Assembly (NCBI GenBank): GCA_023474215.1
Contig: JAMCYI010000016.1
Span: 8,265 to 72,264 of the forward strand
Length of the DNA: 64,000 nucleotides
Direction of reading: 5' to 3'
DNA from: Patescibacteria group bacterium
GTDB lineage: Bacteria; Patescibacteriota; Minisyncoccia; UBA6257; GWB1-50-10
Position 1 is the first letter of the stretch. Every line of letters begins with the position of its first letter. Position numbers and translations under genes: made by a program. Under the pieces are notes generated by a model that searched no databases, was not told the origin of the DNA, and saw nothing but the letters and a program-made list of their open reading frames with translations. Below, piece after piece: positions 52,388-54,812 of the stretch.

Positions 52388-53380
52388 ATGAACGATGCCG
52401 TCCTCATAACCCTTGCCGACAAGAACTTCATTCCTCAAGCGAAGCAGCTCTTTTCGTCGGCATATTGGAACGGAGGGTGGCAGGGGGATTTCCTGCTCTT
52501 GGCGCATGAGATCCCGGAGGAGGACCTCCGGTGGTTCCGGGAGAAAGGGATCATTGTTTTCCCCTGCAAGCCGCTTTCGGAGAAAGAACTTGCCGGCCTT
52601 TGGCATCCATCGATCGTCCTCGACAAGTTCTACCTCTTTACGCCTTTCTTCAAGCAGTGGAAACGCATCGTCTTCCTCGATGCCGATATCATCGTCCGGG
52701 CATCGATCGAGAAGCTCACGGACGGCAAGGAACTTTTTTCTTCGCCGAACGCCCACGGCACTTCTCTCCGAAAAGAATTTATAAAGAAGACCAAAAAGAA
52801 CCGCGAGCTCTTCGGACGGCTGGAAAAGGAATACCCGCTCCAAGGGAAAGCATTCAACAGCGGCATTATGTCGTTTTCCGCGGATGTTATCCAAGAAGAT
52901 TCTTTCAAGAAACTTATGGAGCTCTACCAGCGCTTTGGGGAACTCAACAAATACGGAGAGGAAGCGACCATCAATCTCTTGTTCTATCGGAACTGGCATA
53001 TGCTTTCGCCGCTCTACAATACGTACCCGTGGCGCACGCATCATCTGTACGACCTTTCCTATAACAAAATCCAAGCCATCATCCTCCACTTCGTCCGCGA
53101 AACAACAGCAAAGCCTTGGCTTGAAACTTCGCCGTTCCACAAGGAATGGCTCGCGAACTTCGAGCGAGCCGATGCGATCGATCTCTTAAAACCGCAAAAC
53201 GCTGCAAGAATGTGGACATCAGATGAAGAGAAACGGTATCTCCGATCCCTCGCCGTGCGGAGATCCCTGACGTTCTACCGATGGGCGCTCTTTGCCGCCG
53301 ACTGGGCAATCGGCAGGATCGGGCTTTTGATAAAAAAATTGTCGCCCGCGCTCTATGAAAAAGTCCGCATTAAAAATTAG
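52388..53380 (+). CDS. GT8-family glycosyltransferase, tandem paralog 4
   Basis: MNDAVLITLADKNF...FLDADIIV...FNSGIMSF. Confidence 0.75.
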   Translation: MNDAVLITLADKNFIPQAKQLFSSAYWNGGWQGDFLLLAHEIPEEDLRWFREKGIIVFPCKPLSEKELAGLWHPSIVLDKFYLFTPFFKQWKRIVFLDADIIVRASIEKLTDGKELFSSPNAHGTSLRKEFIKKTKKNRELFGRLEKEYPLQGKAFNSGIMSFSADVIQEDSFKKLMELYQRFGELNKYGEEATINLLFYRNWHMLSPLYNTYPWRTHHLYDLSYNKIQAIILHFVRETTAKPWLETSPFHKEWLANFERADAIDLLKPQNAARMWTSDEEKRYLRSLAVRRSLTFYRWALFAADWAIGRIGLLIKKLSPALYEKVRIKN

Positions 53381-54812
53381 CGTGGTCGTTCCCGTGCGGA
53401 ACGCAAGCGGCACGCTTGCCGATTGTTTGGCCGCCGTTCTCGACCAAACGGAAAAGCCGCATGAAGTGATCGTCGTCGAGAACGATTCCGACCGCGAAAC
53501 GCGGAGCGTCATCGACGATTTCAGAAAACGCTACCCCGATCTCCTGAAGGTGGTGCACGAAGGCATTCCCGGCCGGGCGAGTGCCCGGAATGCCGGCATT
53601 GCGAGAACACAAGGTGACATAATCGCCATGACCGACGCCGACTGCATCGTCCCCAAAAACTGGCTGGAACGCATCACGCACCCCATTCGAGAAGAGGGCG
53701 AGAGTGCCGTTATGGGATTCGAAGAACCGGAACTCGAGAATTACTGGACCCGCATGAGGCAAAAGGAGGATGCAGAGTTCGCATACTCCACATTCGATGG
53801 CAAATATGCAAACCACGTCGATACGAAGAACTTTGCGATCCGCGCCGACCTTATGAAGCGCACGATGTTCGACCCGGAACTTCTTGCTTACGAGGACTGG
53901 GATCTCTTCCTTCGCCTTGCAAAGAAGGGGGTGAAGATCAGATTTCTCCCCGATGTCATTGTCCGGCACCGCCATAACGCTTCTTTCGGAGAACTCCTGA
54001 AAACCCAGTATACGCGGGCACGCGGCATGGAACGAGCTTTCGTTGCACACTGGAACGATCCGTCATTCCGGGATCATTATAAAGAAGATGCAAGCGCACG
54101 CTCCCACCGGTTCTGGAATTTCATTGCATTCATCCCGTGGTCCGTCTGGCAGCTCGTTGTCAATCCGACGAAAGCTGCGTTCCGCATCGTTTCCGACGCC
54201 GCATGGAAAGCGGGCCTTGTCATAGAATCAATCTCACTCCGCCTGGTACGACTCCGCATCGCGATCGTAAGAAAACTGCTCGGCATCCAAATGGAAACAC
54301 CCGAGATCCTGGCCGTCTTCCGGGCAATCCGTCCGCCGATGAACCTCCTCGTCTTCGGCGCCGGGAACGATTCTTTGTTCTGGCGTGAAGAAAACCGGAA
54401 CGGGAGGACGGTCTTCCTCGAAGATGAGGAAGCGTGGCTCGATCGCATCCGAAAGCAATGCCCCGCGCTCGAACTATACCGCGTCGACTACGGGACTCGC
54501 GTCAGCGACTGGCGCACGCTCATCAATCACCCGGACGAACTCGAGCTTAAACTCCCCGCCGCCATCCGTGAAACGGCATGGGATGTGGTGCTTGTCGACG
54601 GCCCCCAGGGTTATGCACCCCAGAAGCCCGGGAGAATGAAAAGCATTTTCGAAGCGTCGCGCCTCGCAAAACCCGGCGGGTCGGTTTTTATCCACGATTC
54701 CGAACGGGAAGTGGAAAAAGAATACGGAGAAAAATACCTCGGAAAAGAAAGCATCGTCGAAGAAGCGGTCGGACGCGCCGTTATGCGGCGGTACCTTCGT
54801 ATTCTTCGATAA
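53355..54812 (+). CDS. bifunctional GT2 glycosyltransferase / DUF579 (glucuronoxylan-methyltransferase-like, Polysacc_synt_4) fusion
   Basis: N-terminus ISVVVPVRNASGTL...MTDADCIV (GT2); C-terminus LLVFGAGNDSLFWREENRNGRTVFLEDEEAWL...VVLVDGPQGY matches the DUF579 core (VFGLGHDSLMW...GG.T.FLEE...W). Confidence 0.6.
   Translation: MKKSALKISVVVPVRNASGTLADCLAAVLDQTEKPHEVIVVENDSDRETRSVIDDFRKRYPDLLKVVHEGIPGRASARNAGIARTQGDIIAMTDADCIVPKNWLERITHPIREEGESAVMGFEEPELENYWTRMRQKEDAEFAYSTFDGKYANHVDTKNFAIRADLMKRTMFDPELLAYEDWDLFLRLAKKGVKIRFLPDVIVRHRHNASFGELLKTQYTRARGMERAFVAHWNDPSFRDHYKEDASARSHRFWNFIAFIPWSVWQLVVNPTKAAFRIVSDAAWKAGLVIESISLRLVRLRIAIVRKLLGIQMETPEILAVFRAIRPPMNLLVFGAGNDSLFWREENRNGRTVFLEDEEAWLDRIRKQCPALELYRVDYGTRVSDWRTLINHPDELELKLPAAIRETAWDVVLVDGPQGYAPQKPGRMKSIFEASRLAKPGGSVFIHDSEREVEKEYGEKYLGKESIVEEAVGRAVMRRYLRILR

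Follow-up and report, generated by a model that had tools for sequence, protein, structure and literature searches.

The window analysed here is a 64,000-nucleotide stretch of DNA from an uncultured bacterium of the Patescibacteria (CPR). A gene encoding a GT2 glycosyltransferase joined to a DUF579 domain ends a glycan cluster there (GT2, three GT4 and four GT8), which runs convergently towards the genes of a short Wzt/Wzm ABC exporter. The cluster spans positions 45023-56392, about 11 kb, and is listed below with its divergent neighbour and with the parts of the fusion gene.

43274..45016, minus strand: divergent gene for a 580-aa polytopic membrane protein with about 11-13 hydrophobic segments and a soluble C-terminus (hydropathy)
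45023..46084, plus strand: GT2 of the polyprenyl-phosphate hexose synthase type, AglJ/DPM/GtrB-like (PF00535; TIGR04182 AglJ, NF041391)
46081..47190, plus strand: GT4 glycosyltransferase, 369 aa (PF00534, E=2.4e-28)
47162..49119, minus strand: two tandem GT4 paralogs, 47162-48145 and 48133-49119, with a mutual identity of 78% (PF00534)
49214..50233, plus strand: GT8 paralog a, 339 aa (PF01501, E=3.5e-22)
50205..51287, plus strand: GT8 paralog b, 360 aa (PF01501, E=5e-16)
51292..52383, plus strand: GT8 paralog c (PF01501, E=1.9e-15); ORF listed from TTG 51271, probable start ATG 51292
52388..53380, plus strand: GT8 paralog d (PF01501, E=1.4e-18); probable start ATG 52388
53355..54812, plus strand: fusion gene, GT2 and predicted DUF579 methyltransferase, 485 aa, ATG start (ORF, Pfam, exact NCBI match, AF2)
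53355..54044, plus strand: GT2 catalytic (GT-A) domain of the fusion, aa 1 to about 230 (Pfam, conserved columns, Foldseek)
54045..54284, plus strand: helical region between the domains, aa about 231-310 (DSSP of the model, hydropathy)
54285..54809, plus strand: DUF579 (IRX15/IRX15L/GXM) domain, aa 311-485 (Pfam, NCBIfam, AF2, Foldseek, residue conservation)
54781..55527, minus strand: Wzt/TagH-type ABC exporter ATPase, 248 aa (PF00005; NCBIfam TagH, galactan exporter Wzt/RfbE)
55637..56392, minus strand: Wzm-type ABC-2 permease, 251 aa, about 5-6 TM segments by hydropathy (PF01061; NF050109 Wzm/RfbD)

The fusion gene overlaps the 3' end of GT8 paralog d by 26 nt and the convergent Wzt gene by 32 nt, and the GT8 paralogs are 44-62% identical to one another. 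The 248-aa Wzt consists of the ABC_tran domain only, lacks a C-terminal carbohydrate-binding module (CBM), and covers the 244-position CBM-less Wzt/RfbE model of NCBIfam nearly end to end. The locus thus combines a Wzt ATPase and a Wzm permease with adjacent cytoplasmic glycosyltransferases, in a gene order kept among relatives, as is characteristic of ABC-dependent (Wzm/Wzt) assembly loci. None of the ORFs scanned in the window was recognisable as a priming phosphoglycosyltransferase of the WecA/WbaP type, and such a gene may lie elsewhere in the genome; the window likewise yielded no S-adenosylmethionine (SAM) synthetase. The polyprenyl-phosphate hexose synthase-type GT2, whose ORF is listed from 44336 with a probable start at ATG 45023, ends in about four C-terminal TM helices, and a GT2 with GT2_TM_C occupies the orthologous position in the related loci L086 and L087. 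The divergent 580-aa membrane protein had no match in Pfam or in the other family scans; it could be a GT-C-like partner of the polyprenyl-phosphate-sugar synthase. A 596-aa protein, also without a Pfam match, is found at the equivalent position in L086.

The fusion protein and its two halves

The ORF has exactly the coordinates that a sequence-only reading of this DNA had given it, its translation contains the peptides quoted there (NLLVFGAGNDSLFWREENRNGRTVFLEDEEAWL ... WDVVLVDGPQGY) at aa 330-420, and the GT2 plus DUF579 architecture proposed for it is right, as PF00535 and PF21729 both score over their curated Pfam thresholds. The product is 100% identical to MCL5114904.1 at NCBI, where the annotation "glycosyltransferase [Patescibacteria group bacterium]" overlooks one half of the protein. 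Full-length orthologs, from 96% down to 50% identical and 479-493 aa long, form ten clusters, all of which keep both domains in a single frame. The GT2-DUF579 fusion is a real, conserved gene, and we rejected the possibility of a mis-joined gene pair, because the fusion is intact in all ten clusters and a stop at the junction, an apparent TAA at codon 312, occurs only in L002 (FK3.bin131).

The AlphaFold (AF2) model of the whole protein is confident with respect to both domains and their packing (pLDDT 94.9, pTM 0.91), and reveals a GT-A fold, a helical linker and a class I SAM-methyltransferase fold, in this order. According to DSSP, residues 253-269 of the region between the domains form an aromatic, interfacial helix, and residues 271-309 an Arg-rich one of 39 residues that makes the link; most of the helical region (aa about 231-310) is also contained in standalone GT2 orthologs of 292-295 aa. 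Hydropathy predicted no transmembrane helix in the 485-aa protein, the most hydrophobic 19-residue window reaching 1.51 against a threshold of 1.6 and containing three Arg and one Glu. Both domains should therefore reside on the side of the membrane where SAM and nucleotide sugars are found, and a transmembrane linker that would put the methyltransferase outside the cell was rejected on the same grounds.

In the GT2 half, PF00535 (Glycos_transf_2) matches aa 9-147 with E=1e-28 and 100.8 bits against a cutoff of 23.3, and a second Pfam match covers aa 8-216. The DxD motif (D94-A-D96) and the E180-D181-W182-D183 motif fall in columns that are invariant in 11 orthologs. Foldseek matched this half to PcManGT (6yv7), WrtF and TarP/TarS, with E-values of about 1e-13 to 2e-14. 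These enzymes, several of which extend or decorate wall or lipid-linked polymers, share with it a GT-A fold followed by helices (target-normalised TM-score 0.5-0.66). However, they all lack a methyltransferase domain and are only 12-21% identical to the GT2 half, which precludes transfer of a donor or acceptor assignment.

The sequence-only reading had named PF04669 and PF00535 as the families to be sought. The latter was found and the former was absent from the scan, the family being represented by PF21729 (IRX15_IRX15L_GXM) in the copy of Pfam used, which matches the C-terminal half with E=1.3e-38 and 132.9 bits against a curated gathering cutoff of 27.8. NCBIfam TIGR01627 (A_thal_3515) aligns aa 326-470 with model positions 38-205 of 225 (E=2e-35); model positions 1-37 are unmatched and the score of 122.6 bits is below the curated cutoff of 149.85. 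The half contains motif I, G335-x-G337-x-D339-S340 (GxGxDS, of the SAM-binding type), the acidic residues E356/D357, and further W409-D410, D415-G-P417-x-G419-Y, P425-G-R427-M and H447-D448-x-E-R451-x-x-E454. The match extends beyond a generic Rossmann core, as WDVxLVDGPxGY, PGRM and VHDxEREVE are also found in plant members and are invariant in the 11 orthologs. The domain is modelled by AF2 with a pLDDT of 95.5. Its comparison with the PDB by Foldseek gave 273 matches at E<=1e-3, and nearly all of the 50 listed are SAM-dependent methyltransferases with TM-scores of about 0.6, including MnmM, PrmA, COMT (7xjb) and MycF (4xvz). COMT is a cation-dependent O-methyltransferase and MycF a sugar O-methyltransferase. 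When the C-terminal domain was compared by sequence with the PDB, no significant match emerged (best E=0.26), and hence there is no solved DUF579 structure usable for residue-level inference. The intact SAM-binding-type motif and the confidently modelled class I methyltransferase fold make the role of a glycan O-methyltransferase reasonable for this domain.

The DUF579 family and its plant relatives

In the literature, DUF579 is a family of plants and algae, with an origin traced back to Chlorophyta and no further. Every DUF579 enzyme characterised so far is a SAM-dependent sugar O-methyltransferase, with GXM1-3 and AGM1/2 4-O-methylating glucuronic acid (GlcA) (PMC6508755); for the plant clade IRX15/IRX15L enzymatic activity has not been demonstrated, so membership in the family is by itself no guarantee of catalysis. 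The literature yielded no biochemistry on a prokaryotic DUF579 protein. The family nevertheless comprises at least 1,286 clusters at 50% identity. Among the best 150 of these, most are standalone proteins of about 200 aa that score higher than the plant matches; the best-scoring clusters are mostly microbial, and the few with a checkable origin are bacterial. The suggestion that the domain is unusual for this lineage was thus an overstatement; it is the specific joining of GT2 to DUF579 that is still uncommon, with about 10 clusters inside a small CPR group.

The plant GXM1-3, AGM1/2 and IRX15/IRX15L proteins belong to the same PF21729 domain family as the fusion, to which they are 35-41% identical across about 160 aa, and have in common with it the motifs LVFGxGxDS, TVFLE(D/E), WDVxLVDGPxGY, PGRM and VHDxEREVE, as well as, judging by sequence, the predicted chemistry of SAM-dependent sugar O-methylation. 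However, the plant proteins (about 280-365 aa) are type II Golgi membrane proteins with an N-terminal anchor that act in the Golgi lumen, whereas the DUF579 domain of the fusion has no anchor, follows a GT2 domain and must act in the cytoplasm. Moreover, an insertion in the plant sequences, CRPVQNLLFSxC, is absent from the bacterial domains. In the neighbor-joining tree of 225 domains, the fusion domains are placed among microbial standalone proteins, outside the plant group. The tree is poorly resolved, as the GT2 fusions do not form one clade and the plant group has a bootstrap of only 62%; it excludes nesting of the fusion domains within plants, and it does not give the direction of transfer.

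Residue conservation was counted over 294 family domains, 260 of them non-plant, with a plant sample skewed towards IRX15-like sequences. Over the 260 non-plant domains, motif I GxGxDS, E356/D357, D415, R427, D448, R451 and E454 are 98-100% conserved; D415, R427, D448 and E454 are conserved at 94-100% in the plant and non-plant samples alike, while R451 is found in 100% of the non-plant sample versus 85% of the plant sample. These counts bear on the possibility that the DUF579 domain lacks catalytic activity and serves, as suspected for IRX15/IRX15L, as a scaffold or in carbohydrate binding, or that it methylates a non-carbohydrate substrate. Besides the lack of demonstrated activity in IRX15/IRX15L, this possibility draws on the standalone bacterial genes, which we found in mixed, non-glycan neighbourhoods (L083, L084, L085) and which suggest that the substrate range of the family may exceed sugars. 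However, in the IRX15-like plant sequences the Asp of motif I is replaced by Glu (97% of the plant sample), whereas 98% of the non-plant domains have GxGxDS, which the active GXM clade, judging from one plant sequence (P0063), probably has as well. In addition, the putative catalytic residues are all invariant in the 11 orthologs down to 50% identity, which argues for selection on the active site, and DUF579 is repeatedly fused to glycosyltransferase domains in other proteins (GT4, GT2, GT8, GT41 and Nucleotid_trans), which points to a carbohydrate substrate. We therefore regard a non-catalytic domain or a non-carbohydrate substrate as very improbable. The standalone DUF579 gene of L084, from Methyloterricola oryzae, adjoins genes for a sulfatase and an FGE-sulfatase; the contexts of the standalone genes are on the whole uninformative, and we draw no support from them.

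Related clusters and the putative methylated residue

The order GT8(n), GT2-DUF579 and the convergent Wzt, of 246-254 aa, and Wzm is kept in the orthologs at 73%, 51% and 50% identity and in L001, and the Wzt/Wzm module is also found in L001, L079, L080, L082, L086 and L087. In all orthologous clusters Wzt is 246-258 aa long. The standalone CPR GT2 orthologs P0012 and P0014 (292-295 aa) are 47% identical to the fusion protein over aa 1-290 and occupy the same slot, as the final glycosyltransferase before the convergent Wzt/Wzm and after two or three GT8 genes, but they have no DUF579 domain. L087 contains separate Methyltransf_24 and Methyltransf_11-type genes in place of DUF579, and in the 15-kb locus read for L086, which has the same exporter, no methyltransferase is present. 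In P0109, a GT8 of the type found in the cluster is fused directly to DUF579; the DUF579 part shows 51% identity, and GT8 paralog d is 45% identical to the GT8 half over its full length (BLASTP E=5e-104). The gene downstream of P0109 was considered as a Wzt and rejected, as it is a GT4 fragment.

According to the sequence-only reading, the GT2 domain would add a sugar that is then O-methylated at once. The O-methyltransferase role is reasonable; that sugar and that timing are one option among several, as P0109 joins DUF579 to GT8, and the target could equally be a residue added by GT8 or another part of the polymer. One may go further and consider the cluster as a prokaryotic counterpart of the plant GT8(GUX)-DUF579(GXM) module, perhaps related to the source from which that module evolved, in which GT8 would add an alpha-linked uronic acid, DUF579 would 4-O-methylate that residue, and the GT2 domain would merely tether the methyltransferase. 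In plants, GlcA is installed on xylan by the GT8 GUX enzymes, and 4-O-methylation of GlcA is the activity of every characterised DUF579 enzyme. The GT8 genes lie directly upstream of the fusion in the window and in the orthologs at 73%, 51% and 50% identity, P0109 unites the two domains in one chain, and the candidate active-site residues R427, H447, D448, R451 and E454 are common to the plant proteins. However, characterised bacterial GT8 enzymes mostly transfer Glc or Gal, none of the four GT8 paralogs matched an NCBIfam model, no UDP-glucose dehydrogenase is encoded in the 64-kb window, and identity to the plant proteins is only 35-41%. Such a counterpart is, in our opinion, quite improbable; if it were true, the plant and algal DUF579 proteins would derive from a large unrecognised family of bacterial glycan O-methyltransferases. 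The GT8-DUF579 linkage, by adjacency and in one relative by fusion, in any case raises the question of the origin of the plant glucuronoxylan methylation module.

A proposed role in ABC-transporter-dependent glycan assembly

We consider it on balance probable that the fusion protein is a cytoplasmic enzyme with two functions, attached peripherally to the membrane, which serves an ABC-transporter-dependent surface-glycan pathway and carries out an accessory, SAM-dependent O-methylation of the lipid-linked glycan ahead of export. According to this proposal, the inverting GT2 domain (GT-A, D94/D96) would transfer a sugar from a nucleotide-activated donor onto a polyprenol-linked glycan, assembled on the cytoplasmic face together with the neighbouring GT8 and GT4 enzymes. 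The DUF579 domain would then use S-adenosylmethionine, and probably a divalent cation by analogy with reports on plant GXM, to O-methylate a sugar hydroxyl in the nascent glycan, which would finally be exported through the short Wzt/Wzm transporter, whose genes converge on the fusion gene. Its methyltransferase domain may be regarded as an accessory decoration module recruited to a conserved cluster, carried on GT2 here and on GT8 elsewhere and possibly split off in a third lineage; other lineages lack it or have unrelated methyltransferases instead. In favour of this proposal we counted, besides the domain scores, the model and the conserved motifs, the synteny kept among orthologs, the standalone GT2 orthologs in the same slot, the recurrent fusion of DUF579 to glycosyltransferases, and P0109 as a Rosetta-stone case. 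We counted against it the TIGR01627 score below cutoff, the lack of a priming phosphoglycosyltransferase and of a SAM synthetase in the window, the lack of demonstrated activity in IRX15/IRX15L, the non-glycan contexts of the standalone genes, and the lack of published biochemistry for prokaryotic DUF579.

If the domain is active, the prokaryotic branch of DUF579, a family with well over a thousand sequence clusters, would receive its first function, and a further family of methyltransferases would join those that decorate bacterial glycans. To our knowledge, the envelopes of Patescibacteria are essentially uncharacterised, and the cluster of about 11 kb is a compact candidate for reconstituting a surface glycan of this group.

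It was also claimed that O-methylation would be a rare modification in bacterial surface glycans, which goes too far, since methyl and methyl-phosphate caps and glycosyltransferase-methyltransferase fusions are established (WsaE, WbdD, ORF6 of Klebsiella O7). WbdD of E. coli O8/O9a and ORF6 of Klebsiella O7 are methyltransferase(-kinase) chain terminators and, like the role proposed here for the fusion protein, involve a SAM-dependent change to a polyprenol-linked glycan that is still on the cytoplasmic side and awaits export by an ABC transporter. These precedents suggest another scenario, in which methylation of the non-reducing terminal sugar blocks the acceptor hydroxyl, sets the chain length and licenses export. 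The terminator concept is well established for Wzm/Wzt-dependent pathways, to which our cluster belongs, and the methyltransferase is joined to a polymer-building glycosyltransferase as in WsaE. However, known terminators are mounted on long coiled-coil rulers, and the cap is read by a C-terminal CBM of Wzt (PMC11231755). The fusion cluster has neither the coiled-coil ruler, nor the kinase partner, nor the CBM-bearing Wzt of the WbdD and ORF6 systems: its Wzt and those of all orthologous clusters are short, and the inter-domain helix has only 39 residues and is packed in a compact model. Furthermore, the presence of the same exporter in L086 without a methyltransferase in the locus read implies that export cannot generally depend on a methyl cap. 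A chain-terminating cap thus appears unlikely, and we retain accessory decoration as the preferred role.

The closest analogy in architecture is WsaE from the S-layer glycan system of Geobacillus stearothermophilus NRS 2004/3a, which combines a methyltransferase with two rhamnosyltransferase domains and produces a 2-O-methyl-rhamnose cap. Both proteins unite glycosyltransferase and O-methyltransferase modules on one polypeptide, in a Wzm/Wzt-dependent pathway of a monoderm bacterium. On the other hand, WsaE has two glycosyltransferase domains rather than one, and its methyltransferase is N-terminal and has not been reported as DUF579, whereas in the fusion protein the methyltransferase is C-terminal and of the DUF579 family. 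Methylation by WsaE caps the chain, with Wzt as the proposed reader of the cap, while the Wzt of the fusion cluster has no CBM. The two loci are nonetheless alike in their organisation, with tightly packed, overlapping genes.

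The glycosyltransferase-methyltransferase fusion protein

The open reading frame at 53355..54812 (+ strand, 485 aa, ATG start) lies exactly where the sequence-only reading had placed it, and the peptides quoted there were located in its translation. Pfam detects two independent significant domains in the protein, namely PF00535 (Glycos_transf_2) on aa 9-147 (E=1e-28, 100.8 bits, cutoff 23.3), with two related models, PF13641 and PF10111, in agreement, and PF21729 (IRX15_IRX15L_GXM; E=1.3e-38, 132.9 bits, cutoff 27.8). PF04669, the accession proposed earlier for the second domain, is absent; in the Pfam copy used the family is PF21729. 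The NCBIfam model TIGR01627 aligns aa 326-470 with its positions 38-205 (of 225) in one stretch (E=2e-35), with a score of 122.6 that does not reach the strict cutoff of 149.85. The match extends beyond the generic Rossmann core: besides motif I, the DUF579 domain and the plant members have the motifs WDVxLVDGPxGY, PGRM and VHDxEREVE in common. The observation of a GT2-DUF579 fusion is correct and statistically solid. An identical protein is deposited at NCBI (MCL5114904.1, 72-kb contig) as "MAG: glycosyltransferase [Patescibacteria group bacterium]", a name that covers the N-terminal half alone. The nearest genomes in the species collection are the MAGs WY2.bin70 (95% identity) and FK3.bin131 (75%).

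The AlphaFold2 model of the protein, built from a 65-sequence alignment (pLDDT 94.9, pTM 0.91, so that the relative placement of the domains is confident too), starts with a GT-A domain (aa 8 to ~230), continues with a helical region, one helix of which spans 39 residues (271-309), and ends in a C-terminal alpha/beta domain (aa ~315-481), which reaches a pLDDT of 95.5 when modelled alone. For the first ~320 residues, the best structural matches are PcManGT (6yv7), WrtF and TarP/TarS. A sequence search of the PDB with the C-terminal domain returned no related solved structure; the fold matches listed for it are almost all class I SAM-dependent methyltransferases at TM ~0.6, among them MnmM, the unannotated 3cvo, PrmA, COMT and the sugar O-methyltransferase MycF. 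A hydropathy search for a transmembrane helix found no 19-residue window at the usual threshold (the highest, 1.51, holds three Arg and one Glu), and the aromatic stretch at 253-269 resembles an interfacial helix. A cytoplasmic protein attached peripherally to the membrane is accordingly the most likely arrangement, which would place the two active sites on the nucleotide-sugar/SAM side.

Full-length orthologs with both domains form ten clusters (96-50% identity, 479-493 aa). All 11 fusion sequences compared retain, in the GT2 half, the DxD motif (D94, D96) and E180-D181-W182-D183, and, in the methyltransferase half, G335, G337, D339 and S340 of motif I, E356/D357 at the acidic end of strand 2, D410, D415-x-P417-x-G419, P425-G-R-M-K-S-I431, H447-D448, E450-R451 and E454. 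Across 260 non-plant domains of the family, G335, D415, P417, G426, R427, D448, R451 and E454 are ~100% conserved and D339 is kept in 98%, whereas Glu replaces D339 in 97% of the plant sequences retrieved, a sample that is mostly IRX15-like; a single plant sequence, P0063, retains GLGADS. This pattern suggests selection for enzymatic function in the bacterial domain, and makes a non-catalytic role of DUF579 unlikely.

The glycan cluster and its variants

Within a glycan cluster, the fusion gene closes a series of genes on the + strand.

Genes of the glycan cluster in the window
43274-45016 (-): 580-aa polytopic membrane protein, no Pfam hit
45023-46084 (+; start probable): polyprenyl-phosphate hexose synthase-like GT2 with C-terminal TM helices
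46081-47190 (+): GT4
47162-49119 (-): two tandem GT4 paralogs
49214-53380 (+): four tandem GT8 paralogs, the last overlapping the start of the fusion gene
53355-54812 (+): GT2-DUF579 fusion
54781-55527 (-): Wzt/TagH-type ATPase, 248 aa, convergent
55637-56392 (-): Wzm-type ABC-2 permease, convergent

The core module, in which a number of GT8 genes and the fusion gene face a convergent Wzt-Wzm pair, recurs in the related loci L001 (95%), L082 (73%), L079 (51%) and L080 (50%). The tandem GT8 paralogs are 44-62% mutually identical and number four in the window versus three in L001. Paralogs c and d have a near-identical N-terminus and upstream region (160/200 nt, 51271 vs 52367) despite an overall identity of 56%, which suggests a recent duplication or gene conversion of their 5' ends. 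The tandem GT4 paralogs are 78% identical and lie on the strand opposite to the rest of the glycosyltransferase run.

Among GT2 homologs that stand alone, the closest are P0012 and P0014 (292-295 aa; 47% identical over aa 1-290), which occupy the equivalent cluster slot in other CPR genomes and lack DUF579. Of the two related clusters, L086 has no methyltransferase within the 15-kb locus read, and L087 has one Methyltransf_24 and one Methyltransf_11-type gene at its edges. P0109 (519 aa) is instead a GT8-DUF579 fusion, with a GT4 gene downstream; its GT8 half is 45% identical to paralog d over the full length (E=5e-104) and its DUF579 half 51% identical to the domain studied here. In the 75% identical ortholog from FK3.bin131 (L002:10001-11460, JAJYWR010000006.1), CAA is changed to TAA at the otherwise invariant Q312, directly followed by ATG, so that the locus reads as a 311-aa GT2 ORF and a 155-aa DUF579 ORF, with a frameshift close to the 3' end. 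Four contigs (NCBI, JGI, Logan, ENA) are on record with the 155-aa product (P0278). Three origins are conceivable for the locus: a gene genuinely split between its two domains, a pseudogene, or a mistake in the 3.75x-coverage assembly. Taken together, these variants indicate that DUF579 is functionally tied to the glycosyltransferases of the cluster, but they do not single out the GT2 product. The earlier proposal stands in outline but over-specifies the target in taking the GT2-added sugar to be the one O-methylated. The glycan pathway itself is conserved, and the DUF579 methyltransferase appears to be a mobile addition to it; its patchy occurrence in clusters that are orthologous in other respects points to an accessory modification by which the surface glycan is diversified.

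[quoted passage not shown] Based on homology, fold, motif conservation and genomic context, we propose as the probable function that the GT2 domain would add one residue of a polyprenol-linked glycan, that the methyltransferase physically coupled to it would O-methylate a sugar of this glycan with SAM at the cytoplasmic face, and that Wzm/Wzt would export the glycan after methylation. That the target is a uronic acid installed by GT8 is made attractive by the parallel to plant GUX-GXM and by the P0109 fusion; however, no ugd gene was found in the 64-kb window, and we regard this reading as improbable. It is somewhat less doubtful, although still unlikely, that the protein acts as a chain terminator of the WsaE or WbdD type. 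Those systems have a coiled-coil ruler and a CBM-bearing Wzt, while the system in the window has neither: a helix of 39 residues joins the two domains, and its Wzt (248 aa) aligns nearly end to end with the 244-position model of a CBM-less galactan exporter. Wzt is of similar size in the related loci, at 246-254 aa in L079, L080 and L082 and 255 aa for the ORF of L001. Moreover, the sister cluster L086 relies on the same transporter for export without a methyltransferase in the 15-kb locus read. We favour coupled O-methylation before export, and describe the protein as a probable bifunctional glycosyltransferase/O-methyltransferase of an ABC-dependent glycan pathway, whose methyltransferase belongs to a family so far uncharacterised in prokaryotes.

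DUF579 domains outside plants

DUF579 has been treated as a plant and algal family, with the earliest ortholog in Chlorophyta (PMC5902652), and our literature search found no characterised prokaryotic member. When 1.84 billion representatives were searched exhaustively with HMMER, using the 175-aa domain as the query, 1,286 clusters passed E<=1e-3, of which 850 also passed 1e-10 and 133 passed 1e-30. Each of the top 150 among the 1,286 scores 119 bits or more, and the majority are standalone proteins of 180-250 aa; the best plant match scores 107 bits, but with the whole protein as the query. Named bacterial carriers include Methyloterricola oryzae and Gammaproteobacteria MAGs. The sequence-only reading, which took the modification to be rare in bacterial surface glycans and the domain to be unusual for this lineage, exaggerates on both counts, since microbial DUF579 proteins are common, as are O-methylated bacterial glycans and glycosyltransferase-methyltransferase fusions. 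In 37 multi-domain relatives the fusion partners are GT4 (6), Nucleotid_trans (4), Methyltransf_24 (4), GT2 (3), GT8, GT41 and others. A neighbor-joining tree of 225 domains, weakly resolved, unites the labelled plant sequences in one group (bootstrap 62%) and places the GT2-fusion domains among microbial standalone proteins (the closest 59% identical). The main value of the fusion is as a way into this large microbial branch and into the surface glycans of CPR bacteria.

Tandem DUF579 copies, two to four per polypeptide (652-2241 aa), occur in P0108 and P0136 (three each), P0159 (four) and P0110 (two). In the cultured methanotroph M. oryzae (L084:7001-7654, JYNS01000002.1), a standalone DUF579 gene adjoins sulfatase and FGE-sulfatase genes, a neighbourhood that might connect the domain with the metabolism of sulfated or modified polysaccharides.

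Other features of the window and its relatives

The remainder of the window is ordinary CPR chromosome, with rRNA, type IV pilus, glycolysis, pentose-phosphate and CTP synthase genes. Some 9.8 kb separate the 16S rRNA gene (10810-12277, -) from the 5' portion of the 23S rRNA gene (1-980, -). The interval holds two tRNAs, a PCMT methyltransferase and type IV pilus genes (a PilB-like T2SSE, a PilC-like T2SSF and four or five proteins with a prepilin motif), so that the rRNA genes do not form a compact operon. In the release-factor ORF 15316-16047 (-; PCRF and RF-1 domains) the PCRF profile is matched from position 96 only, hence the N-terminal part lies outside the ORF, as might be expected from programmed +1 frameshifting in prfB (RF2). 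Transketolase is split over two ORFs (-): 21452-22321 encodes the N-terminal TPP-binding part, and 20151-21371 the pyrimidine-binding and C-terminal parts.

Two ~250-aa ORFs with weak matches to IS200-like Y1 transposases (37784-38542, -, and 58039-58809, +) flank the region of the glycan cluster and two very large ORFs. Three very large ORFs, at 30119-34678 (-; 1519 aa), 40011-43406 (-; 1131 aa, fn3 domains) and 58825-62283 (-; 1152 aa, without a match in the Pfam scan), probably encode surface proteins. Just past Wzm lies a four-helix-bundle 23S_rRNA_IVP ORF (56471-56818, -), a homologous family member of which is found near the orthologous cluster in L079 (L079:10407-10760), and the genes past the exporter in L082 encode Phage_phiTE_241_C and Cupredoxin_1 domains.
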